A stretch of DNA of 47,598 nucleotides from Fidelibacterota bacterium (lineage in GTDB: Bacteria; Fidelibacterota; Marinisomatia; Marinisomatales; TCS55), in assembly GCA_014239505.1 (NCBI GenBank), contig JAAZYT010000173.1, forward strand, positions 1 through 47,598, given 5' to 3'. The notes under the pieces were generated by a model. The model did no database searches, was not told the DNA's origin, and saw nothing but the letters and a program-made list of their open reading frames with translations. Made by a program: the position numbers and the translations under genes. Positions 24,538 through 43,804 of this stretch are shown here, one piece after another; position 1 is the first letter of the stretch, and every line of letters begins with the position of its first letter.

Positions 24538-24971
24538 AAATTCATGTTGCGACAGATCATGCTGGGTTAGAATTAAAAAACTCAATAAGAGATTATCTTA
24601 TTAATAATGGGCACGATGTAACAGATCATGGAGCTCATGAGTATGATGCTTTAGATGACTACCCCGATTTTATTTTTCCTTGTGCACATGCAGTAGCTAA
24701 AGACCCTTCAAGTCGTGGTATAATATTAGGAGGATCTGGTCAAGGTGAAGCAATGGCTGCTAATCGTGTTAAAGGTGTAAGAGCAGCAGTGTTTTATAAT
24801 GGGCCTAGTGAAATTGTTAAGCTTTCAAGAGAACACAATAATGCAAATATACTTTCTTTAGGTGCTCGTTTTATGACTGAAGATGAAATACATAGCATTC
24901 TTGAAATGTGGCTTTCGGAACCATTTGGAGAAGGAAGACACCAAAAAAGAATTGATAAACTAGATCAATAG
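24534..24971 (+). CDS. rpiB: Ribose-5-phosphate isomerase B
   Basis: MKIHVATDHAGLELKN..., GILLGGSGQGEAMAANR-like motif, and NILSLGARF. ATGA overlap with tkt. Confidence 0.9.
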   Translation: MKIHVATDHAGLELKNSIRDYLINNGHDVTDHGAHEYDALDDYPDFIFPCAHAVAKDPSSRGIILGGSGQGEAMAANRVKGVRAAVFYNGPSEIVKLSREHNNANILSLGARFMTEDEIHSILEMWLSEPFGEGRHQKRIDKLDQ

Positions 24972-25546
24972 CTTTTATTTATAATACCTTTTAAATCTTT
25001 ACGTGTATTCATATTTGCAAATTCTTTTTGATTGTCATTTATTGGTACATAGTCAGTTTTTATTAATTGCAATATATCAAGAACTTTGAGGTTTTTATTT
25101 ATAAGCTCTTTTTTAATATTTAAATGAGCTTTCTGATTATAAAATGCACAAACAGGGTTGCTTTGCTCTTTAATGATTGGAACAATAGCATCAGCTGACT
25201 TATTTCCATTAGCCCAAATTTTACGAATCATTTCAGAAGACATTAATGGTAGATCGCATGATATTATGAAATTCCATTTTTCTTTGCTGTGACTTAAAGC
25301 TGAATATATTCCATTTAGAGGGGATTGAATTTTTACTATTTCATCCTCAAGAAATGGATATTTAATTTGATTATGCCTTGATTTACCTATTATATATCGT
25401 TTTTTAAAAACTTTGCATATTTTCCATGTATGATCAATTAAACGAACTCCATTTAGTTTTGCTGCCCATTTTGGAGAGCCAAAACGTTTACTTGAGCCTC
25501 CAATAAGAACATATGCATTTGCATTAATTTTTGTAGACGATTGCAT
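24965..25546 (-). CDS. mobA: Molybdenum cofactor guanylyltransferase (MobA-like NTP transferase)
   Basis: N-terminal YVLIGGSSKRFGSPKW (GGxSxRxGxxK). About 190 aa. Divergent from the Mo-enzyme operon. Confidence 0.75.
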   Translation of the reverse strand: MQSSTKINANAYVLIGGSSKRFGSPKWAAKLNGVRLIDHTWKICKVFKKRYIIGKSRHNQIKYPFLEDEIVKIQSPLNGIYSALSHSKEKWNFIISCDLPLMSSEMIRKIWANGNKSADAIVPIIKEQSNPVCAFYNQKAHLNIKKELINKNLKVLDILQLIKTDYVPINDNQKEFANMNTRKDLKGIINKSY

Positions 25547-25597: not shown

Positions 25598-27208
25598 ATG
25601 AATTATGGATTTGTAATAGATAATCGCATGTGCATTGGATGTCATGCTTGTACTGTAGCTTGCAAAAGCGAGCATGATGTTTCGATTGGTGTCAATCGTA
25701 CACATGTTAAGTATATTGAAAAAGGTGAGTTTCCTAATTCAACTCGCGAATTTTCAGTCCATCGATGTAATCATTGTGCTGATGCACCATGTGTAGAAAT
25801 TTGTCCAACAACAGCTCTCTATGATCGAGCTGATGGGATTGTAGATTTTGACAACGATCGTTGCATAGGGTGTAAGTCTTGCATGCAGGCTTGTCCTTAT
25901 GATGCTCTTTATATTGATCCTGATACCAATACAGCAGCAAAGTGTAACTACTGTGCTCATAAAGTTGATTCTGGTTATGAGCCAGCCTGTGTAACAGTAT
26001 GCCCTGTCGAAGCTATCATCTCAGGAGATTTAGATGATCCCAGCACTCATATTTCACAATTGGTTGCAAATGAAAATACGATGACTCGTAAGCCAGAAAA
26101 GATGACGGATCCTAATTTATATTATGTAAATGGCTCAAAAGAAATGCTTGATCCAAATGCAACTTCACAAGAAGACACATATGTTTGGTCCGAACAATCC
26201 CAAGGAGTAGGACATTATGCTAAATATGCAGATAAGAGGTTAGCTGATTCTGATACAGAAAATTTATTAGTGCAATTAGCGATGGAGAATTCAGCTAGAA
26301 CTGGTAAGTCTTTTGATCAAAGAGCAATAGATAATGTAGCTAAAGAAATTCAGCAAGATATAGATCAAGGAGACGCACGTAGAGTTTATGATTCTCCAAG
26401 TAAAGGTGTATTATGGGGATGGGAAGTCTCAGGATATGTATGGACAAAAGCTATGGCAACTGGAACTTTTTTAATGATGGGTTTATGGAATTTTTTAAAA
26501 GGACCTTTAGACAGTTCTTCTGAGTTTTATGGCCTCATAACTACATTAATTTTTATGGGTATTACTGGAGCTCTATTGGTCAAAGATTTGGACCGACCTG
26601 ATCGGTTTCTTTATGTCTTACTACGTCCTCAGTGGAAATCATGGTTAGTTAAAGGAGCGTATATTATTACAATTTTTGGTGGGCTAGTTACGATAAAATT
26701 GATTGATAATATTTATGGGTTTAATTGGAATTGGTTATGGGTGCTAGGTTCAATTTTTTCAGTATTGGGTGCTATTTATACTGCATTTCTCTTTGCCCAG
26801 GCTAGAGCAAGAGATTTGTGGCAATCTAAATGGGTTTCTGCTACTCATATGCTTGTACATGCAATTATTTCTGGCTCTTTTGTTTTGATGATTATTTCAC
26901 CTTTATCCAAAAACTATATGGCTAATTTCCTACTCCTCTCAATCACTATTAATATTATCATTATAATGAAAGAAATACTTTTTCCTCATAATACTCCTGA
27001 TTCAAAGAAAGCTATTCATCTCATGACTAAAGGATATTATTCAAAATATTTTTGGTTAGGTATTACACTTGGAAGTTTTATACCAATTATAATGCTAAGC
27101 ACTCAAATTGGAGAATTAGTAATTATTGCTGGAGTTTTATCATTGATTGGGAATTATTTAACAGAATATGTTCGTATTAGAATACCACAAATGATACCAT
27201 TGAGTTAA
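25598..27208 (+). CDS. Fusion of a four-cluster [4Fe-4S] ferredoxin subunit (PsrB/DmsB/NrfC-like) with an 8-TM NrfD/PsrC-like quinone-interacting membrane subunit
   Basis: Cys clusters CIGCHACTVAC, CNHCADAPCVEICP, CIGCKSCMQACP and CNYCAH...CVTVCP lie in the first ~165 aa. A hydrophilic linker of about 110 aa follows. Then come eight hydrophobic helices starting at GVLWGWEVSGYVWTKAMATG. No signal peptide. Confidence 0.85.
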   Translation: MNYGFVIDNRMCIGCHACTVACKSEHDVSIGVNRTHVKYIEKGEFPNSTREFSVHRCNHCADAPCVEICPTTALYDRADGIVDFDNDRCIGCKSCMQACPYDALYIDPDTNTAAKCNYCAHKVDSGYEPACVTVCPVEAIISGDLDDPSTHISQLVANENTMTRKPEKMTDPNLYYVNGSKEMLDPNATSQEDTYVWSEQSQGVGHYAKYADKRLADSDTENLLVQLAMENSARTGKSFDQRAIDNVAKEIQQDIDQGDARRVYDSPSKGVLWGWEVSGYVWTKAMATGTFLMMGLWNFLKGPLDSSSEFYGLITTLIFMGITGALLVKDLDRPDRFLYVLLRPQWKSWLVKGAYIITIFGGLVTIKLIDNIYGFNWNWLWVLGSIFSVLGAIYTAFLFAQARARDLWQSKWVSATHMLVHAIISGSFVLMIISPLSKNYMANFLLLSITINIIIIMKEILFPHNTPDSKKAIHLMTKGYYSKYFWLGITLGSFIPIIMLSTQIGELVIIAGVLSLIGNYLTEYVRIRIPQMIPLS

Positions 27209-27209
27209 A

Positions 27210-30050
27210 ATGAAAAGAAGTTGGATTGAAACTTTTTCCGAGTCTTTAGGCCTAATATCTAAAATATCAGATAGACCTGATTGGTCTGAAGAGCAAATAA
27301 TGGAAGGGCCAAAAGAACTATATAAATATCCTGACCCAAGTGAATGGGATGACTTTACTGAGCTAGATCCCCTTGCTTGGCCCGAGAAGAAAGAACGTCA
27401 TTATTCAATTGTTCCGACAACTTGTTTTAATTGCGAATCTGCATGTGGTCTATTAGCCTATGTAGATAAAGATTCAAATAAAGTACGAAAGTTTGAAGGT
27501 AATCCACATCACCCTGGTAGTCGTGGAAGAAACTGCGCGAAGGGTCCAGCTACAATTAACCAAATTAATGATACTGAAAGAATTCTTTATCCATTAAAGC
27601 GAGTTGGTAAAAGAGGTGAAGGAAAATGGGAAAGAATATCATGGGAACAAGCCATGAATGAAATTTCAGAAAAGATTGCTTCTTCAATTCGTAAAAGGAA
27701 AGATGGTGTTGTATATCATGTAGGAAGACCTGGACACGAAGGTTATGCCGAACGTGTATTGAAAGCTTGGGGAGTCGATGGTCATAATTCGCATACAAAT
27801 ATTTGTTCAGCTGGTGCACGTACAGGATATGCTTTATGGCATAAATATGACAGACCTAGTCCTGACCATACAAATGCTGAAGTAATTTTATTAGCTTCAT
27901 CACATTTAGAAACAGGACATTATTTTAATCCACATGCACAAAGAATTATGGAAGGTATGATGAAAGGTGCAAAATTAATTGTAATGGACCCACGTCTTTC
28001 CAATACTGCTTCAATGGCAGATGAATGGATGCCGACTTATCCAGGATCAGAATCTGCAGTTTATATGGCAATGGCAAAAATTATTTTAGATGATGAATTA
28101 TATGATCGACATTATATGGAGAACTGGGTTAACTGGGATGAATATCTAAAAAAATTACATCCAAATGATCCATTAGAGTTTGATCAATTTATTAAGCGAT
28201 TAAGTGAAGAGTGGTCCGAATACACACCTGAATATGCAGCTAAAGAAGCTCAAATAGAGGCTGACCAAATAATTAGAGTAGCAAAGATGATTGGTAAAGC
28301 CGGTAGTAAGTTGTCAACCCATGTTTGGAGAGGTGCTTCCATTGGAAACTTAGGTGGTTGGCAGGTTTCTAGAACACTTCACTTATTAAATGTACTAACT
28401 GGATCTGTTGGTACTAAAGGGGGAACATCTCCAAGCGCATGGAATAAATTTCACCCTGAATTTTTTGATAATCCTCCTGGTCCTGATGCTTGGAATGAAT
28501 TGAATTGGCCCAAGGAATACACAATGGCTCATTATGAAATGAGTCAGATTTTACCACACTTAATTAAAGATGGGCGTGGAACATTAGATGTTTACTTTAC
28601 TCGTGTTTTCAACCCTGTTTGGACATATCCAGATGGATTTAGTTGGATAGAAATGCTGTCAGATAAAGAAAAAGTTGGTTGTCATATTGCTTTAACGCCA
28701 ACTTGGAATGAAACGGCATTCTTTGCTGATTATGTTTTACCAATGGGGCATGCATCAGAACGTCATGATTTAAACTCATATGAAACACAAGCTGGTGTTT
28801 GGATAGCTTTTCGACAACCAGTTCTTCGAGAAAAAGCAAGAAGAGATGGTAAAGAGATTAAATTCACACATGAAGTAAATCCAGGAGAAGTATGGGAAGA
28901 AGATGAATTTTGGATTGAGCTTTCGTGGCGGATTGACAAAGATGGTGACCTAGGTATTCGAAAGCATTTCATGAGTCCTTACAGAAAAGGTGAAAAAATA
29001 AACATAGATGAATATTATCAATATATTTTTGAGCATACTAAAGGATTACCTGAGGCTGCAAAATTAGAAGGCCTTAATGCATTAGAATATATGAGAAAAT
29101 TTGGTGCTTTCTTGGTTGATGATGCAGTCTATAAAAATAATGAAAAAGAAATTGAAGAAAGTGAATCACTCGAGCCAAATGGTCAGATTGAAAAAGATGG
29201 AAAAATAGTAGGAATTCATGTTGATGGAAAGAATTATTCAGGATTCCCAACTCCATCAAGGCGTCAAGAAATTTATTCTCAAACTATAGTTGACTTTGGT
29301 TACCCAGAGCATGCAACACCGGGATATAGGATAAAAAGCCATGTCCATAGAGATGAAATGGATTTAACAAAAAATGAATGTGTATTGCTTCCTAATTTTA
29401 GATTACCAACACATATTCATTCACGTTCAGCAAATGCTAAATGGTTAACAGAAATTGCTCATAGAAACCCTATTTGGATTCATACTAAAGATGCAAAAAG
29501 ATTAGGCGTAAAAAATGGTGATTGTTTAAAAATCACAACTGAAATTGGTTGGTTTGTAGATAAAGTTTGGGTTACTGAAGCTATAAAGCCAGGAGTTGTT
29601 GCTTGTTCTCATCATATTGGTAGGTGGCGTCGCCAGCAAGATGAGGGTAATCGTTTTATGACAAATACAGTAGATATTAGCAACTTGGGTAATGGAAAAT
29701 GGAAAATGGAAACTGTAAGAGGTATTGAACCTTGGAAAACAGATGATCCAGATACTAATAGAATATGGTGGCGAGATGGAGGTGTACATCAAAATATTAC
29801 ACATGCAACTAATCCAGACCCAATATCTGGAGCACATTGCTGGCTTCAAAAAATTAGTATTTCTATACCATTAGAAGGTGAGAAATATGGTGATATTTAC
29901 GTTGACACAAATAAGTCTTTTGAGCATTTTAAAAAATGGAATGAGTGGGCTAAGTCCAGAGAAACTCACCCTAATGGAATGCGTAGACCTTTATGGATGG
30001 GACGTCCACTAACTCCACAAAAGAATCAATTTTATTTAGATAATTCTTAA
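27210..30050 (+). CDS. Molybdopterin (bis-MGD) oxidoreductase catalytic subunit, Psr/Phs/Ttr/Soe-like, with no Tat signal
   Basis: N-terminal [4Fe-4S] motif CFNCESAC-X29-C (..HHPGSRGRNCAKG). Candidate Mo-ligand Cys in TNICSAGARTG. 946 aa. The N-terminus MKRSWIETFSESLG has no RRxF(L/I)K motif. An in-frame TGA 9 nt upstream prevents N-terminal extension. Confidence 0.85.
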   Translation: MKRSWIETFSESLGLISKISDRPDWSEEQIMEGPKELYKYPDPSEWDDFTELDPLAWPEKKERHYSIVPTTCFNCESACGLLAYVDKDSNKVRKFEGNPHHPGSRGRNCAKGPATINQINDTERILYPLKRVGKRGEGKWERISWEQAMNEISEKIASSIRKRKDGVVYHVGRPGHEGYAERVLKAWGVDGHNSHTNICSAGARTGYALWHKYDRPSPDHTNAEVILLASSHLETGHYFNPHAQRIMEGMMKGAKLIVMDPRLSNTASMADEWMPTYPGSESAVYMAMAKIILDDELYDRHYMENWVNWDEYLKKLHPNDPLEFDQFIKRLSEEWSEYTPEYAAKEAQIEADQIIRVAKMIGKAGSKLSTHVWRGASIGNLGGWQVSRTLHLLNVLTGSVGTKGGTSPSAWNKFHPEFFDNPPGPDAWNELNWPKEYTMAHYEMSQILPHLIKDGRGTLDVYFTRVFNPVWTYPDGFSWIEMLSDKEKVGCHIALTPTWNETAFFADYVLPMGHASERHDLNSYETQAGVWIAFRQPVLREKARRDGKEIKFTHEVNPGEVWEEDEFWIELSWRIDKDGDLGIRKHFMSPYRKGEKINIDEYYQYIFEHTKGLPEAAKLEGLNALEYMRKFGAFLVDDAVYKNNEKEIEESESLEPNGQIEKDGKIVGIHVDGKNYSGFPTPSRRQEIYSQTIVDFGYPEHATPGYRIKSHVHRDEMDLTKNECVLLPNFRLPTHIHSRSANAKWLTEIAHRNPIWIHTKDAKRLGVKNGDCLKITTEIGWFVDKVWVTEAIKPGVVACSHHIGRWRRQQDEGNRFMTNTVDISNLGNGKWKMETVRGIEPWKTDDPDTNRIWWRDGGVHQNITHATNPDPISGAHCWLQKISISIPLEGEKYGDIYVDTNKSFEHFKKWNEWAKSRETHPNGMRRPLWMGRPLTPQKNQFYLDNS

Positions 30051-30074
30051 TAGATTCTCCACAATCTCTTAGCC

Positions 30075-30180
30075 AAAAAACCTAAATCTAGCTTAATAGA
30101 TATGGTTTTAGGCCGGTACGGTTCTGAAGGAAACATCAGAATTTGCTCCCGATCCTCTTTTTATTAAGAGGTGACTTGGA
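30075..30180 (+). promoter_or_regulatory. Structured, locally GC-rich leader upstream of moaA; candidate Moco riboswitch or SD-sequestering element
   Basis: Hairpin 1 (30081-30112): CCTAA/TTAGG plus ATCTA/TAGAT. Hairpin 2 (30122-30141): TTCTGA/TCAGAA with loop AGGAAACA. Hairpin 3 (30054-30071): CCTCTT pairs with AAGAGG of the SD, AAGAGGTGA. A CTCCCGATCC segment resembles the Moco-motif CUCCGAGCC from memory, but it is in an unexpected position. Confidence 0.35.
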
Positions 30181-31227
30181 ATGAGAATGGAAAATATAAA
30201 TAAAATAAATGCACCCTTGGATAGCAGTGAAAAATCTGTTTATCCTAAAATTGTTGATAAGCACAATCGTTCTTTCAACTATCTTCGCTTAGCAGTAAAT
30301 GAATATTGTAATCTTCGATGTATTTACTGTATGCCTGAAGAAGGCCTTCCTCTAAGGAATAAAAATGAATTACTCTCAAAACAAGAAATAAAAAAACTGA
30401 TTAATATTTCTGCGCAGCTAGGTGTCTCAAAAATAAGATTTACTGGTGGAGAGCCTTTATTGAGAAAAGATATAAATGAACTAGTTAAATATGCAGTAAG
30501 TCTTAATGGTATTGAGTCAGTTAACTTGACTACTAATGGTATTCTTCTAAATAAATATTTAAAAGATTTTGAATTAGCTGGTTTAACAGGAATCAATATT
30601 AGTCTTGATACTTTAAGGCCAGATAGATTTATTAAAATTACAAGAAGGGACAATCTTAGAGAGGTCTTAGATAATATACAGCTAGCAATAAAATCGAATA
30701 TTGCTTCAATTAAAATTAATGTTGTTGTTATGCGAGATTTTAATCACGATGAGCTTATGGATTTTATAAATCTCACGATAGAAAATGATATTACTGTTCG
30801 TTTCATTGAACTGATGCCTTTTGATTCTCATCAAATTTGGAAAACTGGTAAATTTTATAAATCAAAAGATATTTTAAAAGATATTCAAGAAAAATCAAAT
30901 CAAATAAAATTAATTGATGGCTCTAATACAGAATATTATGCTTTGCAAATTCAAGGAGCAAAAGGCAAAGTCGCAGTAATCCCTTCATATACTCGTAGTT
31001 TATGTGGAAAGTGTAACAGAATAAGAATTACAGCTGATGGGAAATTATTAAATTGTCTTTATAGCGAAGACGGATTCAACTTAAAAACAATTATTCAAAA
31101 TGGTGGTACGGATGAAGAGGTAAGATCAATAATCCTAAAATCATTTGTTAATAAATATAAAGATGGTTGGCTAGCTCAAAATAGTAGTGAGAATCAAAGA
31201 GAATCAATGTCTCAAATTGGAGGTTAA
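30181..31227 (+). CDS. moaA: GTP 3',8-cyclase MoaA (radical SAM)
   Basis: CNLRCIYCMPEEG radical-SAM cluster. C-terminal CGKCNRIRITADGKLLNC cluster. Ends ...SQIGG. Confidence 0.9.
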   Translation: MRMENINKINAPLDSSEKSVYPKIVDKHNRSFNYLRLAVNEYCNLRCIYCMPEEGLPLRNKNELLSKQEIKKLINISAQLGVSKIRFTGGEPLLRKDINELVKYAVSLNGIESVNLTTNGILLNKYLKDFELAGLTGINISLDTLRPDRFIKITRRDNLREVLDNIQLAIKSNIASIKINVVVMRDFNHDELMDFINLTIENDITVRFIELMPFDSHQIWKTGKFYKSKDILKDIQEKSNQIKLIDGSNTEYYALQIQGAKGKVAVIPSYTRSLCGKCNRIRITADGKLLNCLYSEDGFNLKTIIQNGGTDEEVRSIILKSFVNKYKDGWLAQNSSENQRESMSQIGG

Positions 31228-31228
31228 A

Positions 31229-32170
31229 ATGGAAGAGTTATCACATTTAGATGAAGAGGGGAACGTTAAAATGGTGGATGTAACGAATAAAACATCAAAT
31301 AATAGAATTGCAAAAGCTGAAGGAAAAATAACAATGCTCCCCGAGACAATTATAGCAATTCAATCAAGTAGCTTGCCGAAAGGGAATGTTTTAACTACAG
31401 CAAAAATTGCTGGAATATTAGCTGCAAAAAAAACCTCAGATTTAATTCCAATGTGTCATCAATTAAACCTTTCTAATATTGATATTGTATTCAAAATTGA
31501 ATCAAAGGCTATAACTATTTCTTCTGAAGTTAAAGTAAAAGAGTCCACTGGTGTAGAGATGGAAGCATTAACTGCAGTTTCAATTACTGCACTCACTATT
31601 TATGATATGTGTAAAGCAATAGACAAATCAATGTCAATTGGTGAAATCAAGTTAATTGAAAAAGTTGGAGGTAAAACTGATCATTTAACAGATTATCGTC
31701 CTAGTATTGGTGTAATTACAATTAGTGATTCTATTTCCAAATCAGAAGCAAAAGATATTTCGGGCTTAATCTTAGCTGATGGATTTAAAGAGGTAGGCTG
31801 TAACGTCGATCATCAATGTATTCTACCTGATGGATCTAAAGAATTATTATCTACGATAAAACTTTGGAGTAACGAAGGAGTTGAATTAATCATTTCAACT
31901 GGTGGAACAGGTTTAGGCCCACGAGATTTAACAATTGAAACATTAGAAAAGCATTTTAATTCAAATTTACCTGGAATAGAGCAAGCATTGCATGCATATG
32001 GACGGTCAAAAGTAAAAACTTCAATTTTGTCAAGGTTGAAAGCAGGATTAATTGATAAAACAATTGTAATTTGTATTCCTGGTAGCCCTAGTGCAGCTAA
32101 GGATGCATTAAATGTTTTAATTCCAACTATTTTTCATTTATTTCATATGATGAAAGGTGAAAAGCATTGA
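31229..32170 (+). CDS. moaC: Fusion of cyclic pyranopterin monophosphate synthase MoaC with a MogA/MoaB domain
   Basis: The MoaC region has MVDVTNKTSNNRIAKAEG and CHQLNLS. The C-terminal MogA-type region has STGGTGLGPRD. I prefer the ATG at 31229 (GGAGGTTAAAATG, right after the moaA stop) over the track start at 31187, which overlaps moaA. Confidence 0.85.
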   Translation: MEELSHLDEEGNVKMVDVTNKTSNNRIAKAEGKITMLPETIIAIQSSSLPKGNVLTTAKIAGILAAKKTSDLIPMCHQLNLSNIDIVFKIESKAITISSEVKVKESTGVEMEALTAVSITALTIYDMCKAIDKSMSIGEIKLIEKVGGKTDHLTDYRPSIGVITISDSISKSEAKDISGLILADGFKEVGCNVDHQCILPDGSKELLSTIKLWSNEGVELIISTGGTGLGPRDLTIETLEKHFNSNLPGIEQALHAYGRSKVKTSILSRLKAGLIDKTIVICIPGSPSAAKDALNVLIPTIFHLFHMMKGEKH

Positions 32171-32907
32171 TAGAAAATATTCTTCCAATACTTTTTTTCA
32201 TAATTGCATTTATTTACTCTTCAGCAGGCTTAGGAGGGGCCTCTTCTTATACAGCAATTATGGCAATTATGGGTATAAGTTATCAGATAATTCCAACTAC
32301 ATCTTTAGCGTTAAATATTGTGGTTACTTTTTTTGGAACAATCAATTATTGGCGTAATGGTTATGGCAAAATAAAATTGGTTGGACCATTCCTTATCACA
32401 TCTATACCTATGGCATATATTGCGGGTTCATTGAATTTAAATGAATTGATGTTCCAGACTGCTTTGTTGGTAACATTAATTTTAGTTGTTATAAGAATTT
32501 ACTTTTTTGATACTTTTACTTTTTCATTTCAATTATCTCCAATAAGAAAATGGATTTTCATTATTCTATTAGGTTCGATACTAGGCTTTAGTGCTGGTGC
32601 GATAGGAATTGGTGGAGGAATTTATCTTGTACCTTTAATAATTATATTTGGCTTGGGATCAGAAAAAGAAGCTGCTGCTGCTGGTGCGACATTTATTTTT
32701 ATGAATTCTTTAGTAGGTTTTATAGCGCGATTTAAATCTGGCACTTTTGATCTTGATTTTATTTTACCATTAATTTGTTCTGTGGCTATTGGAGGTTTTT
32801 TGGGTTCATATTATGGGTCAAAAAAATATGATGCTAAGACAATACAAAAAGTAATGGGTGGAATAATAATTATAGCTATCATTTTATTAACTCAAAAAAT
32901 ATTATGA
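32167..32907 (+). CDS. TSUP-family (TauE/SafE, DUF81) anion permease
   Basis: 8-TM protein with SSAGLGGASS and GAIGIGGGIYLVP repeats. TTG start overlaps the upstream TGA (TTGA). Its stop overlaps the moeA ATG (ATGA). Confidence 0.8.
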   Translation: MIENILPILFFIIAFIYSSAGLGGASSYTAIMAIMGISYQIIPTTSLALNIVVTFFGTINYWRNGYGKIKLVGPFLITSIPMAYIAGSLNLNELMFQTALLVTLILVVIRIYFFDTFTFSFQLSPIRKWIFIILLGSILGFSAGAIGIGGGIYLVPLIIIFGLGSEKEAAAAGATFIFMNSLVGFIARFKSGTFDLDFILPLICSVAIGGFLGSYYGSKKYDAKTIQKVMGGIIIIAIILLTQKIL

Positions 32908-34127
32908 TATCGGTTAATGAGGCTAAATCAATTATCAATAATAATATTATTGAATTAAAACCAGAGTCTGTTGATTTAAGTAATTCGTCTGGAAGAATTT
33001 TAGCACAGAAAACTATAGCTAATCTTTCTTCACCTTCATTTGATAATTCTGCTATGGATGGATTTGCTGTTCGATCATCTGATACAATTGGTGCAACTAA
33101 GAATAATTGCGTATCATTAATAAACATAGATGTGAGTTCTGCTGGATCACCATCTGATTTGGTATTAAAAAAAGGTGAATGTATTCAATGTATGACGGGA
33201 GCAAAAATACCTAATGGAGCTGATGCTATAATTATGGTTGAAGACAGTAGCGGCTTTTCAAATAGCAAAAATGTTCAAATCATGATTGAAGCTCAAGTTG
33301 GACAACATATCCGCAAAATGGGTGAAGAGATTAATAAAGGTGATACTCTAATAAAAAAAGGCACAACATTAACTACTAGTGAAATTGGAGTTTGTGCTTC
33401 TTTTGGTTATAGTCAATTATCAGTCTCAAAAAAACCAAAAGTTGCTATTTTTGCAACGGGGAATGAATTAGTTGAACCAGGGAAAGATTTAAAAGAAGGA
33501 GAAATTTATAATTCAAATCTTTTTCTTTTTGCAGATTTAGTTAAGAAAGCTGGTTCAAAAGTTGTAGTAAGGAATGTAATTAAAGATGATAAATCTTCAC
33601 TCAAATCATTTTTATTTGATGCGCTTGAAACTTGTGATGTGATTATTTCTTCTGGTGGTGTATCTATGGGGCGCTATGATTACGTTAGAGAAGTTTTTAT
33701 AGATTTAGGAGTGAAAGAGCACTTTTGGAAAGTTGCTCAAAAACCGGGTAAACCATTTTTCTTTGGTACTAATAATAAAAGTTTGATCTTTGGATTACCG
33801 GGTAACCCTGTTTCATCTTACATTGGGTTTATGATATGGGTATGGCCTGTACTTAAACAATTAATGGGGTCTATAAAAGATAAGTCCACTAAAGGGATAT
33901 TGTCAGAACCTTTTCCATTAGAAAAATTGAAACAAAGATATCTATTTGGACAATCATGGATAGAGAATGGAGAATTAAGATGTAAAGCTTCTACAAAAAT
34001 AGGTTCTCATATGCTTTCATCAGCATTGGAAGCAAATTGTATCTTAAGTGCAAATAAAGGTAAAGGGTTTTTAAAACCAGGTGATTTTATAGATGTTACC
34101 ATGCTTCCCTGGAAAACTATAAAATGA
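32904..34127 (+). CDS. moeA: Molybdopterin molybdenumtransferase MoeA
   Basis: SPSFDNSAMDGFAV, ISSGGVSMGRYDYV and GLPGNPVSS. Confidence 0.9.
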   Translation: MISVNEAKSIINNNIIELKPESVDLSNSSGRILAQKTIANLSSPSFDNSAMDGFAVRSSDTIGATKNNCVSLINIDVSSAGSPSDLVLKKGECIQCMTGAKIPNGADAIIMVEDSSGFSNSKNVQIMIEAQVGQHIRKMGEEINKGDTLIKKGTTLTTSEIGVCASFGYSQLSVSKKPKVAIFATGNELVEPGKDLKEGEIYNSNLFLFADLVKKAGSKVVVRNVIKDDKSSLKSFLFDALETCDVIISSGGVSMGRYDYVREVFIDLGVKEHFWKVAQKPGKPFFFGTNNKSLIFGLPGNPVSSYIGFMIWVWPVLKQLMGSIKDKSTKGILSEPFPLEKLKQRYLFGQSWIENGELRCKASTKIGSHMLSSALEANCILSANKGKGFLKPGDFIDVTMLPWKTIK

Positions 34128-35092
34128 TTATAACGCCTGAAGTTTTAAATAAACAAAAAAATGACTTCACAATTATTGATGTTCGCTCAGATGAAGAACG
34201 ACAGAATTTTCCATTATTAGGTTTAGATACAATTTTATCTTCGTATGATGAAAGTATAAATGTAGCGGGGAAAAAAGTTTTAGTTTGTCAGTTTGGGATA
34301 GTTACTGAAGGAATGATAATTGAAAAAAATATTAATAATGCATTTAGTTTATTAGGAGGCGCTCAAGCTTGGGTAGAGTATTATAATGAAAATAAAGACT
34401 TAAGTCGATGGACAAGGCAAATTGTCCTTCCTGAGATTGGAATTGAAGGTCAAAAAAAGTTGTTAAATTGTCAGGTTTCAATAATTGGAATGGGAGGGCT
34501 TGGGTGTCCAGTTGCACAGTCGCTTGTCATGGCAGGTATTGGAAAATTAAAATTAATTGATGATGATTTTGTGTCTATTTCTAATCTTCACAGACAACCA
34601 TTATATAGTTTTCAAGATGTAAACAAGAAAAAAATTCTTGCGGCAAAATCAAAATTAAAAGCTTTAAATCCTGAAGTGACAATTGAAACTGATGATGTTT
34701 TTTTTGATGATAAAAATGGAGAAGAACTATTATTAAATACAGATGTGATAATTGATGCTACAGATAATATTAAGAGCAGACAAAGGATTGACCAAATCTC
34801 TAAAAAATTAAAGATTCCAACAGTATACGGCGCGCTTTTTCGATTTGAAGGTCAAGTCTCTATTTTAAATGTAAATGGTAGTGCAGGTTATAATGAACTT
34901 TTTCCAAATTCAAATACTAATGGTGAAGATTCATGTGCAGATGCTGGAGTGTTATCTATGCTGCCGGCTATTATCGGAAATATCCAAGCATTAGAAGCAA
35001 TTAAATTAATTGTGGGTATAAATAATAACTTAATTGGCAAACTATTGATGTACGATGGAATGAATCATAAAACGGAAGTTATTGAATTATGA
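34124..35092 (+). CDS. moeB: MoeB/ThiF-type adenylyltransferase with an N-terminal rhodanese-like domain
   Basis: The first ~90 aa are rhodanese-like (IIDVRSDEE..., KVLVCQFGIVTEG). ThiF signatures follow: IIGMGGLGCPVAQSLVMAGIG, DDDFVSISNLHRQ and CADAGVL. Confidence 0.8.
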   Translation: MIITPEVLNKQKNDFTIIDVRSDEERQNFPLLGLDTILSSYDESINVAGKKVLVCQFGIVTEGMIIEKNINNAFSLLGGAQAWVEYYNENKDLSRWTRQIVLPEIGIEGQKKLLNCQVSIIGMGGLGCPVAQSLVMAGIGKLKLIDDDFVSISNLHRQPLYSFQDVNKKKILAAKSKLKALNPEVTIETDDVFFDDKNGEELLLNTDVIIDATDNIKSRQRIDQISKKLKIPTVYGALFRFEGQVSILNVNGSAGYNELFPNSNTNGEDSCADAGVLSMLPAIIGNIQALEAIKLIVGINNNLIGKLLMYDGMNHKTEVIEL

Positions 35093-35334
35093 TAAATATA
35101 AAAGTTAAGTGTTTTTCACAAGTAAAATATGCTTTAGGTGCTGATGAATTAACCTTTCAATTAGATGATAATACTACTTCAATTGATCTTGAAAAAATTA
35201 TTAGAAAAAAGGCTGGAAAAAAGTTAAACAATGTTTCTCTTCGAATTGCTATAAATAAAAAATATCAAAAAGAAGAGATTGTTCTTCAAAATGGTGATGA
35301 AGTTGTTTTTATTCCTCCTGTGCAAGGAGGTTAA
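35089..35334 (+). CDS. moaD: Molybdopterin synthase sulfur-carrier subunit MoaD
   Basis: 81 aa, ubiquitin-like, ending in ...FIPPVQGG. ATGA overlap with moeB. Confidence 0.85.
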   Translation: MINIKVKCFSQVKYALGADELTFQLDDNTTSIDLEKIIRKKAGKKLNNVSLRIAINKKYQKEEIVLQNGDEVVFIPPVQGG

Positions 35335-35754
35335 ATGGTAATTATCGAAATTATAAATAAACCAATTAAATCATTTCTCATTACTAATGATGCTAATCAA
35401 AATGGAGCAGAATTAGTTTTTAATGGTCGGGTACGAGGGACAGAAAAAGGAAAGCCAATACAATATTTAGAATATGAATATTATGAAGGAATGGCTGAAG
35501 CTGAATTAAAGCTTCTAGCTAATAAAGTTTGTAAAAAATTTACTATAAATCATCTTTATTGCCGACATAGAGTTGGAAAAGTCAAAGCTGGTGAAATTAG
35601 CATTCATATAATTATTTTATCAAAGCACCGCAAAGAAGCAATTAAAGCGATGGATTGGTTCATTATTAAACTTAAAAAAAATGTTCCTATTTGGAAATGG
35701 GCTATTTTAAATGATGGTACGAAAGTTCCGAGTGATTGCATACACCCAAACTAA
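35335..35754 (+). CDS. moaE: Molybdopterin synthase catalytic subunit MoaE
   Basis: GAELVFNGRVRG, LEYEYYEGMAE, RHRVGKVKAGE and PIWKW. The start directly abuts the moaD stop (TAAATG). Confidence 0.8.
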   Translation: MVIIEIINKPIKSFLITNDANQNGAELVFNGRVRGTEKGKPIQYLEYEYYEGMAEAELKLLANKVCKKFTINHLYCRHRVGKVKAGEISIHIIILSKHRKEAIKAMDWFIIKLKKNVPIWKWAILNDGTKVPSDCIHPN

Positions 35755-35778: not shown

Positions 35779-37194
35779 ATGTTAGCATTTTCAAATAACT
35801 CACTCGCAAATTATCTATTTTGGGTTTCCCGAAAAAAATGGCTAATTATAACATTTTTCTTGAGCATAGGACTTTTTTACTTACCTACTCCTGAAGGATT
35901 ATCCTCAGAAGGGCATCGGACATTGATTATTGTTGTTACAACTTTGATCTTAATTGTATCTGAATCTATCCCCTTACCTGCTGTTGCAATCCTCATTCTT
36001 ATAATGGAGGTCACATTAGGAGTCGATTCACCAGATGGAGTTGCAGCTTCATTTATGAGTGATGCTGTTTTCTTTATAATGGGATCATTAATGCTTGCAG
36101 TCTCAATCGTGCATCAAGGTTTAGATAAAAGGCTCGCACTTGCGATAATTAATATTACTGGGAATAAAACAATAAACATTACTTTTGGCTTTGTAACAGT
36201 ATCAGCATTAATGTCATCATTTATTGGGGAACACACTGTTGCAGCAATGATGCTACCAGTTGTACTTGCATTAATTAAAAATGCAGGTTTGGACACAAGT
36301 AAAGCAACAAAGCTTTCAACATTACTTTTATTTTCTATTGCATATGGTTGTGCTCTTGGATCAATAGGAACACCTTCAGGTGGTGGTCGCAATGTGATTA
36401 TGATTGGTTATTTATCTGAATTTGGCTTAGGAGATATATCTTACTTAGAATGGATGAAATATACTTATCCAATGCTTCTTATTGAAATTCCAATTGCTGT
36501 GACTGTTTTATGGCTTACATTTACACCAAAACAAAAAAGTCTTGATACAGCTATTAGAAAATTAAAAGTCAATGTTGCAAAATCTGGTAAACTTTCTGGC
36601 AAGCAATTAATGGCTATTCTCGTTTTCATTTTAGTTTTCTTAGGTTGGGTCTTTTTAAGCCCTTTTATTGGTTTGGGTATTGTTGCACTTGCAGGTGTAT
36701 TTTTTTATTTAACATTTGGTTTAATTGAATGGCCTGATATTGCTAGAAGAACAAACTGGGGTGTTATTTTATTATTTGGATCAGCTATTTCTTTAGGAAT
36801 CCAAATGAAAGAAACTGGCGCAGCTCTTTACGTTGCTGAGAATGCACTCTATTCGCTTCAATATATTTTTAAAGATATAGAAATAGTTCGTTGGTTCTTC
36901 TCTGTTGTCCTTAGCGCTATACTCACAAATTTATTAAGTAATGCAGCAACAGTTGCTGTCCTGGGTCCAATAGTTTTAGATATGGGTGGCAACCCTATAA
37001 TATTAGGTATTGCGACTTCAGTAGCATCGGCCTTTGCCTATTTAACAATTGTGGCTTCACCTACCTGTATGATTATACATTCAACCGGGTTAGTTAGTTC
37101 AAATGACTATTTCAAAGCAGGTTGGAAATTATTTATTATTTCAATTATCCTTCTTTTTTTAGTTTCATTCTTTTACTGGCCTATATTATTATGA
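35779..37194 (+). CDS. SLC13/DASS-family (ArsB/NhaD superfamily) anion:Na+ symporter; substrate (sulfate or di/tricarboxylate) undetermined
   Basis: Polytopic membrane protein with internal repeats and an LLSNAATVAVLGPI hairpin motif. Confidence 0.7.
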   Translation: MLAFSNNSLANYLFWVSRKKWLIITFFLSIGLFYLPTPEGLSSEGHRTLIIVVTTLILIVSESIPLPAVAILILIMEVTLGVDSPDGVAASFMSDAVFFIMGSLMLAVSIVHQGLDKRLALAIINITGNKTINITFGFVTVSALMSSFIGEHTVAAMMLPVVLALIKNAGLDTSKATKLSTLLLFSIAYGCALGSIGTPSGGGRNVIMIGYLSEFGLGDISYLEWMKYTYPMLLIEIPIAVTVLWLTFTPKQKSLDTAIRKLKVNVAKSGKLSGKQLMAILVFILVFLGWVFLSPFIGLGIVALAGVFFYLTFGLIEWPDIARRTNWGVILLFGSAISLGIQMKETGAALYVAENALYSLQYIFKDIEIVRWFFSVVLSAILTNLLSNAATVAVLGPIVLDMGGNPIILGIATSVASAFAYLTIVASPTCMIIHSTGLVSSNDYFKAGWKLFIISIILLFLVSFFYWPILL

Positions 37195-38075
37195 AAATAT
37201 TAATAGCAGTAAGTAGTAAAAAATATTCAGCTGACACACTTAGTGTTGGTATGAAAGTTGTGAAAGCATTTAATGCATCAACTACAATTGTTGATGTTGG
37301 TGAAAAAATAAATCAGTTTAGTATGAAAGAAGTGGATATGGTTCAAGAGAGAATGGACTCTTGGGATATAGATCGCCCAGGAGTTGATGTTTTAGAATGG
37401 GCTTTTGAATACTTAGCAGAAAAAGAATTAATTAAGACCAATACTATTGAAGCAGGCTTTCCCAAAAACACATTAGTAGAAACTGAGGGTGGGCGTTCAG
37501 AAGTTTTTCTTGAAGGAACTTTTTCTGAAAATTTAAATCTTATTTTACGAAATGGCGATATAGTTGAAGAATTAAAAAACGAAGTTCAAAATCATGGATA
37601 TGATGTTACAATTATTGGTGGAAGTGGAAAACGACGAATGTCACATGACCTTACTCAATATATCAATAGTTCTATATTTGTAGTTAATAATTATAAACCA
37701 AATCAAAACTATCGCTTGTTATTAGCGGTAGATAATTCAGTTGGTACAAAAAAAGCTGTAAAGTATGGTGTTAGAATTGCGCAAGCACTTGATATTGAAG
37801 TTGATATTATAACAGTAAGTAAAACAGACGAATTTAAAGATGATTATAATAAGGCTGCTGATTGGGCTTCAAAATTTTTAAGACGTACAAATATTAATCA
37901 CAAAAAGATTTTCTTAAATGGCAACCCATCAGAATTAATTTCTAGAGAAGCAGGTGATAATCATATTATTGTTATGGGTTCATCTAATAGGAATCCATTA
38001 AAAACATTTTTTCAAGGAAATAAGCCGTTAAAGGTTCTTGAAAATTCTCAATGTCCTATATTAATTGTAAAATGA
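37191..38075 (+). CDS. Tandem universal stress protein (two UspA domains)
   Basis: MKILIAVSS... and LLLAVDNS... domain starts. C-terminal IIVMGSSNRNPL...CPILIVK. I prefer the ATG at 37191 (ATGA overlap with the permease stop) over the track start at 37122. Confidence 0.75.
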   Translation: MKILIAVSSKKYSADTLSVGMKVVKAFNASTTIVDVGEKINQFSMKEVDMVQERMDSWDIDRPGVDVLEWAFEYLAEKELIKTNTIEAGFPKNTLVETEGGRSEVFLEGTFSENLNLILRNGDIVEELKNEVQNHGYDVTIIGGSGKRRMSHDLTQYINSSIFVVNNYKPNQNYRLLLAVDNSVGTKKAVKYGVRIAQALDIEVDIITVSKTDEFKDDYNKAADWASKFLRRTNINHKKIFLNGNPSELISREAGDNHIIVMGSSNRNPLKTFFQGNKPLKVLENSQCPILIVK

Positions 38076-40917: not shown

Positions 40918-41283
40918 ATGAGATTTAGTTACCAAAGACAAAAGATTCGTGAAATTGTTCATAATACAAATTCTCACCCAACCGCAGATTGGGTTTATTT
41001 AGAAGTAAAAAAATCTATACCTAACATTAGTTTAGGAACAGTTTATAGAAATTTGAAGCAACTAGAAGAATTTGGAGATGTAAAAACAATTTATGATGGA
41101 AATATTGCTAGATATGATTGGAATACTGATCCACATAATCATTTAAAATGTAAAAATTGTGGTGATCTTATCGATATTGTAATATCGGATAAAGCAATGT
41201 ATCCAAAAATAAAAAAAGATTTTAAATTTAGTGTAGATAGAGTAGAAATGCTTATTATCGGCACATGTAAAAAACACGCATAA
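40918..41283 (+). CDS. Fur-family metalloregulator, PerR-like by genomic context
   Basis: HPTADWVYLEVKK...ISLGTVYRNLKQLEEFG winged helix. HNHLKCKNCG and a C-terminal GTCKKH Cys pair. Rubrerythrin follows 15 nt downstream. Confidence 0.85.
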   Translation: MRFSYQRQKIREIVHNTNSHPTADWVYLEVKKSIPNISLGTVYRNLKQLEEFGDVKTIYDGNIARYDWNTDPHNHLKCKNCGDLIDIVISDKAMYPKIKKDFKFSVDRVEMLIIGTCKKHA

Positions 41284-41297
41284 AAAAGGAGAATAGA

Positions 41298-41717
41298 ATG
41301 GCTTTAGAAGGAAGCAAAACACATGAGAATCTAAAAGCTGCTTTTGCAGGTGAATCTCAAGCAAATCGAAGGTACCTATATTTTGCTCGCCAAGCAGATA
41401 TTGAAGGACTACCTGAAGCAGCAGGTGTATTCAAAAATACTGCTGATGGTGAAACTGGTCATGCTTTTGGTCATATTGAGTTTCTAGAAAAAGGTGGGGC
41501 TGGAGATCCAGGCACTGGACTTCCAATTGGCGAAACAGCAGATAATCTTAAAGCAGCTGTTGCTGGAGAAACCTATGAATATACTGAAATGTATCCAGGT
41601 TTTGCAGCGACTGCACGTGAAGAGGGCTTTGATGAAATTGCTGAATGGTTTGAGACTCTAGCAAGAGCTGAAAAATCTCATGCTGGAAAATTTCAACAAA
41701 CTTTAGATAGTTTATAA
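41298..41717 (+). CDS. rbr: Rubrerythrin-family diiron protein without a rubredoxin domain (erythrin type)
   Basis: [39 protein letters not shown] and EKSHAGKF. Only 139 aa, with no C-terminal CxxC pairs. Confidence 0.9.
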
Positions 41718-41725
41718 ACCAAAAT

Positions 41726-41770
41726 AGTGAATAGCGAATTATTAAATTCGCTATTCACTTTATTTTTTAT
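41726..41770 (+). terminator. Strong intrinsic terminator after rbr
   Basis: 15-bp perfect stem AGTGAATAGCGAATT/AATTCGCTATTCACT with a 4-nt loop, followed by TTATTTTTT. Confidence 0.8.
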
Positions 41771-41784
41771 AAATGGGGGGTATT

Positions 41785-43209: not shown

Positions 43210-43219
43210 AAGGAATAGT

Positions 43220-43804
43220 ATGCAAAAACTAGTAATAAAAGATTTGATGAATATTTTAGAATATGAAAAAGTTAGAAATACGTATAGACAAGAATTGATG
43301 TCCTATAAAAAAGATCGTCGAATTTCTCTTGGTCCTAATATTACTCTTACATTTGAAAATAGAAGAACAATGAAATTTCAGATTCAAGAAATTATGCGCG
43401 CTGAGCGGTTAGTGCATGATGAAACTATTCAAGAAGAAATTGAAGTTTATAATTCACTTTTGCCAAAAAGTAATTCTCTTAGCGCAACTTTATTCATTGA
43501 AGTAACAGAGGAATCAAAGATTAAATCTATTTTAAATCAATTTATTGGCTTAACGGAAGGCGAAAGTTTATTTTTTGAAATTAGAGGACAAAAGATTAAT
43601 GCTGAGTTTGAAGCAGGTCGAGAAGAATCAGATAAAATAAGTTCCGTCCATTACGTAAATTTTAAGATTAATCAAGAATTGATTCCACTTTTTGAGAATG
43701 ATGAAGAAATAAAATTGCAAATTCAATATAAAAATTATTTTCATTCTCAAACTTTATCAAGCAAATCCAAGTTGTCATTATTTAATGATTTAACTAGTAA
43801 ATAG
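43220..43804 (+). CDS. DUF3501-family protein (assigned from memory of the family pattern)
   Basis: 194 aa. RRISLGPNITLTFENRRTMKFQIQEIMRAERL...LSATLFIE matches my recollection of DUF3501 (LGxxxTLxFENRxTxxxQIQEMxRxE). It starts 10 nt after the HdrD-like gene. Confidence 0.5.
   Translation: MQKLVIKDLMNILEYEKVRNTYRQELMSYKKDRRISLGPNITLTFENRRTMKFQIQEIMRAERLVHDETIQEEIEVYNSLLPKSNSLSATLFIEVTEESKIKSILNQFIGLTEGESLFFEIRGQKINAEFEAGREESDKISSVHYVNFKINQELIPLFENDEEIKLQIQYKNYFHSQTLSSKSKLSLFNDLTSK

Follow-up and report, generated by a model that had tools for sequence, protein, structure and literature searches.

The window analysed here covers positions 1-47,598 of contig JAAZYT010000173.1 of a Fidelibacterota bacterium, and its central element is a pair of adjacent genes, BC and A, which encode an iron-sulfur (FeS) protein fused to a membrane anchor and a molybdenum-dependent catalytic subunit of the MopB type. 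Our preferred reading, with a probability of about 0.62, is that BC-A forms a cytoplasm-facing, membrane-bound sulfite:quinone oxidoreductase of the type found in green sulfur bacteria as polysulfide-reductase-like complex 3 (PSRLC3); within this reading, we infer the substrate, the catalytic direction, the quinone acceptor and the roles of the transporters. The G+C content of the window is about 32%, and the nearest BC homologues in a protein similarity search bear Marinimicrobia or Neomarinimicrobiota names.

Architecture of the BC-A pair

BC is encoded by an open reading frame (ORF) of 536 aa (25598-27208, + strand). The sequence-only reading of this DNA had described the protein as four cysteine clusters, a hydrophilic linker and eight NrfD-like helices, and the cysteine positions, Pfam and AlphaFold2 agree with that description. 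The 16 cysteines fall into four clusters (residues 12/15/18/22, 57/60/65/69, 89/92/95/99 and 116/119/131/135), and all of them are kept in 75 of 75 fused homologues, where the first is again at residue 12. Pfam recognises Fer4_11 at residues 52-144 and NrfD at residues 269-525 (E=1e-14), and the best solved relative of the FeS domain is Thermus PsrB (2vpw_B, E=8e-47, residues 3-180). The first 250 residues contain no hydrophobic stretch and eight hydrophobic helices follow, residues 270-282 being GVLWGWEVSGYVW; over the 75 fused homologues, the linker ranges from 56 to 111 aa. AlphaFold2, run on the fused BC with 32 and then with 66 sequences, gave eight long transmembrane helices with a predicted local distance difference test (pLDDT) of about 90-98 in the NrfD domain, and values below 50 in the FeS domain and the linker, whose helices are of low confidence. 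In Foldseek searches, the modelled anchor matched PsrC (2vpw_C, TM-score 0.75 on target) and ActC.

A single base separates the BC stop codon (TAA, 27206-27208) from the ATG of A at 27210. The A reading frame (27210-30050, + strand) encodes the 946-aa MopB subunit, with the FS0 cysteine motif and the TNICSAG string, that had been reported one nucleotide downstream of BC, and both the coordinates and the motifs were borne out. Cys199, within TNICSAG, aligns in the HMMER alignment with Cys173 of Thermus PsrA, which we take, from the structural work on PsrABC, to be the Mo ligand of that enzyme. The surrounding string HNSHTN[IV]CS is invariant across the clade of fused proteins, including those of Chlorobium, Rhodococcus and archaea, and the full HNSHTN[IV]CS[AS]GAR is near-invariant. 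All the features of complex-iron-sulfur-molybdoenzymes (CISM; the MopB/DMSO-reductase superfamily) are present, namely FS0, the MopB and MGD-binding domains, a protein Mo ligand, a four-cluster partner and a haem-less NrfD anchor. No NCBIfam model reached its cut-off for either A or BC, in a library that holds no model for the Soe enzymes discussed below.

A pattern scan of one genome per species recovered confirmed fused BC-then-A loci in at least 595 GTDB species. The neighbourhood, identity and fusion statistics given here refer to the best 80 of these at least 595 loci, in which A is 56-89% identical to the window protein. A BC homologue is located immediately upstream of A and on the same strand in 73 of the 80; 68 of these homologues are full-length fusions longer than 440 aa and the other five are cut by contig ends, as are most of the seven exceptions. 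The joining of the FeS part to an NrfD-type quinone module in one polypeptide and the gene order BC-A, both proposed from the window alone, are upheld, and the genome survey shows the fusion to be widespread.

Orientation in the membrane

The FeS and Mo parts of the enzyme very probably face the cytoplasm, because the anchor loops show a strong charge bias, signal peptides are absent and the bias is reversed in cousins that depend on twin-arginine translocation (Tat). The RRxF(L/I)K motif is absent from both BC and A, no hydrophobic segment precedes the first cluster of BC, where only eleven residues stand before the first cysteine, and an in-frame TGA (27201-27203) lies 9 nt upstream of the ATG of A, confirming the earlier statement that neither protein has a signal peptide or a Tat motif. 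Indeed, none of 75 BC proteins has an RR motif, and 78 A proteins contain only three chance RR strings. Taking the helix ends in the confident NrfD part of the AlphaFold2 model as loop boundaries, the window BC carries 11-12 Lys+Arg on the FeS-side loops versus 0 on the opposite loops, and the mean of the 75 homologues is 11.6 versus 0.6. In contrast, the homologous loops of TtrC show either no such bias or the opposite one, as do those of three of the four separate C subunits tested from Tat-type cousins; the fourth, from P0277, keeps 8 Lys+Arg on its FeS-side loops.

A periplasmic location of the FeS and Mo modules, reached through a cryptic signal or by hitch-hiking, would agree with the outward position of the peripheral subunits in all structurally characterised NrfD-anchored CISM enzymes (Psr and alternative complex III, ACIII). 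However, the short stretch before the first cysteine, the RR counts in the family, the absence of a hydrophobic segment before the first transmembrane helix (TM1) and a positive-inside bias that assigns the FeS side to the cytoplasm, and that is reversed or neutral in most Tat-dependent cousins tested, make this location extremely improbable. In addition, a four-cluster domain is unable to cross the membrane via Sec. The charge bias and the lack of signals across the family thus uphold the earlier placement of the Mo site on the cytoplasmic side. The NrfD anchor of BC is predicted to be inverted in the membrane relative to PsrC, and its quinone site would consequently lie on the cytoplasmic side.

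Relationship with known complexes

The architecture had not been recognised in the sequence-only reading as a known one, and here that reading has to be corrected: the shared two-gene unit, the orthology and the PSRLC3 literature make it a known architecture. As far as sequence can tell, the two-gene, Tat-less fused layout is already known as PSRLC3, and what is new is its occurrence in Marinimicrobia. In PSRLC3 of green sulfur bacteria, as in the window, the gene for a PsrB-PsrC-like fusion stands before that for a PsrA-like subunit. Signal peptides are absent, the HNSHTN[IV]CS Mo-ligand motif is common to both, a TauE gene lies downstream, and the Chlorobiaceae proteins are about 60% (A; 59.5% in Chlorobium sp. 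N1) and about 46-49% (BC) identical to those of the window. Chlorobium A branches inside the fused clade of our neighbour-joining (NJ) tree, the BC (517-535 aa)-A pair is present in four Chlorobiaceae loci (L072, L073, L076 and L086), and Chlorobium BC, used as a query, retrieved fused BC proteins from Pelodictyon luteolum, Chlorobium chlorochromatii, Prosthecochloris aestuarii and Prosthecochloris sp. GSB1. The complex is said to have been defined by its PsrBC fusion, although this is only indirectly documented. A genome note on a green sulfur bacterium states that PSRLC3 is encoded by two genes, the green-sulfur-bacteria literature equates the cytoplasm-oriented Psr-like complex with PSRLC3, and other papers treat PSRLC3 as an alternative sulfite-oxidizing system, its role as a sulfite oxidase being inferred. 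A review paraphrasing Dahl et al. (2013) describes SoeABC-like genes as universal in purple and green sulfur bacteria. The two settings differ: the hosts of PSRLC3 are anoxygenic phototrophs with Dsr and the complex is flanked by dsrE-rhd-tusA, whereas the window host comes from SAR406, a lineage of marine heterotrophs that are aerobic or microaerobic, and its pair is flanked by mobA and a complete block of molybdenum cofactor (Moco) genes. As for the possibility, raised earlier, that A nests in a characterised clade of the same layout, the clade does share the layout, but its substrate is a proposed one.

SoeABC (Allochromatium vinosum, Aquifex aeolicus, Ruegeria pomeroyi) resembles BC-A as a cytoplasm-facing, Tat-less MopB enzyme with FS0 and a four-cluster FeS module. 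Its anchor is also haem-less, with eight helices, and has been proposed in the literature to be inverted in the membrane, as predicted for the window anchor, and it has ties to sulfite-producing pathways and to SLC13/TauE-type permeases. In contrast, SoeABC is encoded by three separate genes in the order A-B-C, while the window has a single B-C fusion gene in front of A. As stand-ins for verified SoeA proteins such as A. vinosum D3RNN8 or that of A. aeolicus, our comparison took the A subunits of Tat-less A-B-C clusters from Burkholderia, Azospirillum and Indioceanicola, whose layout agrees with that published for Soe; the stand-in subunits have about 978-1000, 247-251 and 315-321 aa, sizes that the masses of the Soe subunits reportedly match.

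A direct orthologue of the Allochromatium and Aquifex enzyme, in which soeB and soeC of a classical SoeABC had become fused, would explain the similar orientation, cofactor set and proposed reaction, as well as the Soe-like status that the literature gives to the green-sulfur-bacterial complex. Moreover, twelve positions that are invariant in the fused clade, including Ser200, His237, His371, Arg731 and Arg932, are common to the three putative Soe-type A proteins and rare in 13 other MopB references, which is a weak, alignment-dependent hint of alike active sites. Such an orthology is nevertheless improbable. The stand-in A proteins are only 22-25% identical to window A, no nearer than PhsA, TtrA and DmsA, and in the bootstrapped NJ tree the fused proteins and the Tat-dependent P0248, P0283 and P0277 form a 100%-supported clade without the stand-ins, which branch nearer to TtrA with weak support. 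The anchors are also of different families, DmsC/YnfH (PF04976) in the stand-ins and NrfD (PF03916) in the window, and it is Tat-dependent B-C-A enzymes, with 39-44% identity, that stand closest to the fused clade. BC-A would function in a Soe-like manner, yet without the orthology, gene layout or anchor type of the SoeABC stand-ins.

The stand-ins of Azospirillum and Indioceanicola directly adjoin xsc (sulfoacetaldehyde acetyltransferase). In both cases (L103, on an Azospirillum brasilense plasmid, and L104, on an Indioceanicola profundi plasmid), the Soe-type A-B-C cluster stands within genes of sulfoacetate/sulfoacetaldehyde catabolism (a TTT transporter, an aldehyde dehydrogenase, a CoA ligase and xsc), for which the PGAP names are generic. 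An SLC13 permease and a MoeA-like gene follow the cluster in L104, showing that the same transporter classes accompany both kinds of cytoplasm-facing enzyme.

For each of the three modules, the best match among solved structures is Thermus thermophilus PsrABC (PDB 2VPW-2VPZ), with E=4e-36 for PsrA. However, PsrA is Tat-exported, the complex faces the periplasm and is made of three polypeptides, and window A is about 180 residues longer. A Psr/Phs identity was rejected given the absence of a Tat motif, an NCBIfam PhsA score of 212 bits against a cut-off of 694 and 24.7% identity to Salmonella PhsA. TtrBCA has the B-C-A order, a large TtrA (about 1020 aa) and an NrfD-type anchor in common with the window pair, but TtrA is Tat-exported, B and C are separate genes and the loop charge bias of TtrC is opposite; this identity was likewise rejected, with NCBIfam scores of 135 versus 1750 for TtrA and 170 versus 416 for TtrB, and A 23.6% identical. 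Matches on Agrobacterium and Caballeronia plasmids were discarded as unrelated, smaller MopB proteins. CT0494 of C. tepidum is presumably part of the three-gene, Tat-type PSRLC1. We did not equate the window enzyme with 'FqoABC' (Calisto and Pereira), for which CT0494 is the template.

Outside the fused clade, the nearest enzymes are the Tat-dependent B-C-A ones (P0248, P0283 and that of a Sulfurovum mangrovi plasmid), with 31-44% identity. They have the gene order and an N-terminal PPxExW motif in common with the fused clade, and P0248 and P0283 also the SHTNICS ligand motif. They differ in their twin-arginine signal, separate B and C genes and NarJ/TorD-type chaperone, and the neutral or reversed charge bias of their anchors fits a periplasm-facing enzyme. 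In L098 (P0248), L011 (the Sulfurovum mangrovi plasmid) and L010 (Azoarcus KH32C pAZKH), B-C-A is followed by the NarJ/TorD chaperone and a ferredoxin, with an additional cytochrome c in L098; among the outgroups, P0248 lies nearest to the fused proteins.

Gene neighbourhoods and the probable substrate

Sulfur-type genes accompany many relatives of the window pair, and at least one is present within 7 kb in 39 of the 80 loci (persulfide dioxygenase, PDO, in 28; SulP in 18; TauE in 8). The order is ArsR-TusA-DsrE-Rhd/PDO-BC-A-TauE in a Marine Group II (MGII) archaeon (Rhd, rhodanese), ArsR-TusA-DsrE-PDO-BC-A-DASS-DASS-Usp in the Neomarinimicrobiota locus L018 (77% identity), BC-A-TauE-DsrE-Rhd-TusA in Chlorobiaceae, and PDO, DsrE, TusA, BC, A in Rhodococcus jostii pRHL3. 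PDO-rhodanese, SulP and rhodaneses surround BC-A in Bacteroidota, PDO-Rhd and a YeeE-like gene precede BC and A in Myxococcota, and a CsoR-like regulator stands before BC and A in Thermomicrobium. In MGII archaea and Chlorobiaceae, the TauE gene is directly 3' of A. PDO makes sulfite in the cytoplasm, and this source, together with an oxyanion exporter beside a cytoplasm-facing Mo enzyme, fits sulfite oxidation. The PDO-rhodanese, TusA, DsrE, SulP, TauE and DASS genes beside the relatives therefore support sulfite:quinone oxidoreduction, and they strengthen the earlier view that sulfite oxidation is an attractive function.

The same architecture and orientation could also serve another sulfur substrate, such as thiosulfate, a persulfide or polysulfide carried by TusA, DsrE or rhodanese, or tetrathionate, which would be oxidised, or reduced with quinol. 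The nearest named profiles (PhsA, TtrB and ArrB/PsrB, all far below cut-off), the Thermus PsrABC subunits as best solved relatives and the presence of Tat-dependent B-C-A enzymes in the 100%-supported clade would all agree with such a substrate, as would the PDO-rhodanese, TusA and DsrE neighbours, which handle sulfane sulfur and can make thiosulfate. We nevertheless regard it as unlikely, since the SulP, TauE and DASS neighbours point to an oxyanion product that needs export, the literature ties the green-sulfur-bacterial complex to Dsr-made sulfite, and many carriers are aerobic heterotrophs with an O2-dependent PDO, a cytoplasmic source of sulfite. The earlier caution regarding other substrates is thus retained, with thiosulfate and sulfane sulfur as the rivals.

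Functions outside sulfur metabolism, as a formate dehydrogenase or an arsenate, selenate or nitrate reductase, are very improbable. They are evoked by public annotations, as NCBI calls one Poseidoniales homologue 'formate dehydrogenase' and the JGI name is 'anaerobic selenocysteine-containing dehydrogenase', and by the ArsR-family regulators near some loci. However, the NCBIfam scores are 153 bits against a cut-off of 666 for Fdh-alpha and 127 against 1600 for ArrA. The signature of formate dehydrogenases is Sec/Cys-His at the Mo ligand, whereas the Cys ligand is followed by Ser in A, and both the profile scores and this Cys-Ser motif speak against the public label 'formate dehydrogenase'. Furthermore, the neighbourhoods are sulfur-specific, and the ArsR family includes persulfide sensors.

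Several points weigh against sulfite as the substrate and must be kept in mind. Literature searches found no assay or knockout of any family member, about half of the 80 related loci have no nearby sulfur gene, and the 47.6-kb window itself contains no PDO, Dsr, Xsc, TusA, DsrE or rhodanese genes. PDO-rhodanese fusions can also yield thiosulfate, making thiosulfate or sulfane sulfur possible substrates. The TauE and DASS proteins are candidates as sulfite/sulfate permeases and, being encoded downstream of a probable Moco riboswitch, could serve the supply of an oxyanion such as molybdate. The distance of the fused clade from the Soe stand-ins, both in identity and in the tree, belongs here as well.

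If BC-A is a sulfite:quinone oxidoreductase, as we favour, cytoplasmic sulfite would be oxidised to sulfate at the Cys-ligated Mo-bis(molybdopterin guanine dinucleotide) (bis-MGD) site of A. The electrons would pass through FS0 and then through the four [4Fe-4S] clusters in the N-terminal ferredoxin domain of BC, and would reach the quinone site in its C-terminal NrfD domain. Sulfate or excess sulfite would exit via anion permeases, TauE and DASS, or SulP in other phyla.

Cofactor genes, transporters and transcription

The features of the window related to the enzyme are collected in Table 1.

Table 1. Positions of BC-A, its domains and motifs, and the surrounding genes in the window
Feature	Position	Strand	Basis
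mobA, molybdenum cofactor guanylyltransferase	24965..25546	-	Pfam NTP_transf_3 and NCBIfam MobA models
BC residues 1-165, PsrB/ArrB-like ferredoxin domain with four [4Fe-4S] Cys motifs, no signal peptide	25598..26092	+	Cys positions; PsrB match
BC residues 166-268 (about 103 aa), hydrophilic linker from FeS domain to TM1	26093..26401	+	Hydropathy
BC residues 269-536, NrfD/PsrC-type eight-helix quinone-interacting anchor	26402..27208	+	Pfam NrfD, AlphaFold2, Foldseek
A subunit, Tat-less MopB (bis-MGD) catalytic subunit	27210..30050	+	Pfam Molybdop_Fe4S4, Molybdopterin, Molydop_binding
FS0 [4Fe-4S] motif C72-X2-C75-X3-C79-X29-C109	27423..27536	+	Cys spacing in A
HNSHTNICSAGAR motif with Cys199 (codon 27804-27806), predicted Mo ligand	27783..27821	+	Alignment to PsrA Cys173
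Probable Moco riboswitch variant in the A-moaA gap	30054..30186	+	Rfam RF01055
Moco biosynthesis block: moaA, moaC-mog, [tauE], moeA, moeB, moaD, moaE	30181..35754	+	Pfam
TauE/SafE (TSUP) anion permease inside the Moco block	32167..32907	+	Pfam TauE, E=4e-28
DASS/SLC13 anion:sodium symporter	35779..37194	+	Pfam Na_sulph_symp; NCBIfam DASS above cut-off
Universal stress protein-domain gene 3' of DASS	37122..38075	+	Pfam Usp; synteny with L018

The mobA gene is transcribed divergently, upstream of BC-A, and this layout is kept in the closest Marinimicrobia loci, L015 and L016. The mobA product makes the bis-MGD form required by MopB enzymes, and the adjoining position of the gene is consistent with a bis-MGD cofactor for the A subunit. 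L015 and L016 have rpe-tkt-rpiB-mobA upstream in common with the window and lack the downstream Moco block.

The genes downstream of A, from moaA through the Usp gene, all share its strand, each overlapping or abutting the next, with intergenic distances of -41 to 0 in the Moco block, and the sole real gap in this run is the 130 nt between A and moaA. In this gap, a local search found a full-length match to the Rfam model RF01055 with 28.6 bits against a gathering score of 36 (E=6e-5), and the match also stays under the gathering threshold in the whole-window scan. The candidate lacks the P3 hairpin, and its 3' end overlaps the start of moaA. This probable riboswitch suggests Moco-dependent control of moaA to moaE, possibly also of tauE, DASS and usp, and the downstream block is probably under its own Moco-dependent control, apart from BC-A. 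No Moco riboswitch was found in the nine related loci searched, and promoter and terminator scans gave counts that were not above those of shuffled sequence. The TauE and SLC13 genes had been thought to be co-transcribed with the enzyme; their shared strand and abutting arrangement stand, but the probable riboswitch between A and moaA makes co-transcription with BC-A uncertain and the claim has to be qualified accordingly.

The window TauE is a candidate sulfite/sulfate exporter, and the DASS protein a candidate transporter, linked to the enzyme, of sulfate or another anion. Neomarinimicrobiota L018 (9850-12208) has the order A-DASS-DASS-usp, which indicates that the link between DASS and the enzyme is conserved. 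The window displays this same order with the Moco block (moaA to moaE, plus tauE) inserted between A and DASS.

Two genes of the Moco block have unusual features. moaC and a MogA/MoaB-type MoCF_biosynth domain are fused in a single ORF (31187-32170, + strand), for which the annotated GTG start implies a 41-nt overlap with moaA and the ATG at 31229 is an alternative. MoeB (34124-35092, + strand) begins with a region of about 96 aa of rhodanese-like appearance (IIDVRSDEE ... VLVCQFG), followed by the ThiF domain at residues 97-320 (Pfam). Further downstream (40918-43804, + strand), a Fur-family regulator, a rubrerythrin, a CCG-domain/4Fe-4S (HdrD-like) protein and DUF3501 are followed by an MMPL/RND-type transporter; these genes may form an oxidative-stress/iron unit and are apparently unconnected with the molybdoenzyme.

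Distribution and transfer

A HMMER search of 1.8 billion cluster representatives returned 1022 proteins at E<=1e-30, of which the 150 listed are mostly close-clade fragments. Among the best 80 loci, the hosts are Marinimicrobia, Poseidoniales/Thalassarchaeaceae archaea, Saprospiraceae, Lewinellaceae, Flavobacteriaceae and Chlorobiaceae, together with Pirellulaceae, Calditrichota, Acidobacteriota, Ktedonobacterales, Chloroflexota and Binatia. Cultured carriers include Lutibacter aestuarii, Gaetbulibacter and Flavilitoribacter nigricans (Flavobacteriaceae/Lewinellaceae). At 50-54% identity, the family is found in plasmid records of Rhodococcus jostii RHA1 (pRHL3), Thermomicrobium roseum (a megaplasmid) and several haloarchaea, and the fusion was confirmed in those of Rhodococcus and Thermomicrobium.

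The BC fusion is still seen at 39-43% identity. Two distant fused BC-A pairs in this range, L012 (P0244, Myxococcota) and L097 (P0247), have A proteins without the Cys ligand motif. P0244 carries LANDPHADTPATR at the Mo-ligand site, and L012 nevertheless adjoins PDO-rhodanese and YeeE-like genes; these two enzymes may have another Mo ligand or another function. In L006/L019, an A homologue (10001-12856 in L006) with 72% identity has no BC gene upstream; on its 1.1-Mb contig of a metagenome-assembled genome, the gene before it encodes a secreted Ala/Pro-rich protein, and multihaem cytochromes are encoded nearby.

In Marine Group II archaea (Poseidoniales and Thalassarchaeaceae; L020, L022-L028 and L077), BC-A is 67-71% identical to the window pair, and the archaeal BC proteins have shorter linkers, with 470-485 aa in total. 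These archaeal sequences are sister to the Marinimicrobia ones with a bootstrap of 100%, which indicates transfer between Bacteria and Archaea. Our literature searches retrieved no paper on the cluster in SAR406/Marinimicrobia or in MGII. Metagenome surveys (PMC12345210, PMC7887784) describe abundant pdo without SoeABC in sediment, and 'psrA' in Marinimicrobia and Bacteroidetes bins; both results would fit a fused family that standard annotation overlooks or mislabels.

Implications

A specialist in sulfur metabolism would know the layout of BC-A; what goes beyond the routine is the proposed separate lineage with its predicted topology inversion, the transfer between bacteria and archaea and the cultured carriers. 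As a tentative wider view, held at somewhat less than even odds, the fused proteins would constitute a separate lineage of cytoplasm-facing molybdoenzymes, derived from a Tat-exported, periplasm-facing B-C-A ancestor through the loss of the signal, the fusion of the FeS protein with the anchor and the inversion of the anchor. This lineage would act as the so far unrecognised sulfite oxidase of abundant marine heterotrophs, would have been transferred between bacteria and archaea, and would have been missed by surveys based on SoeABC. It would also be a clear case in nature of a respiratory module having switched membrane sides.

Persulfide dioxygenase, reverse Dsr and organosulfonate cleavage all necessarily produce sulfite in the cytoplasm, where it is toxic. 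It is common for gene surveys to recover abundant pdo and few or no 'direct' sulfite oxidases, and the fused family, which neighbours pdo in many phyla and occurs in at least 595 species, could fill this gap if it oxidises sulfite. Some carriers are in culture and partly tractable (Rhodococcus jostii RHA1, Lutibacter, Gaetbulibacter, Thermomicrobium roseum and Chlorobium luteolum), so that the function is directly testable. If the proposal is true, it would concern abundant marine heterotrophs (SAR406, Marine Group II archaea, Flavobacteriaceae and Saprospiraceae), and SAR406 and Marine Group II archaea would join the organisms that return organic and reduced sulfur to sulfate in the ocean.

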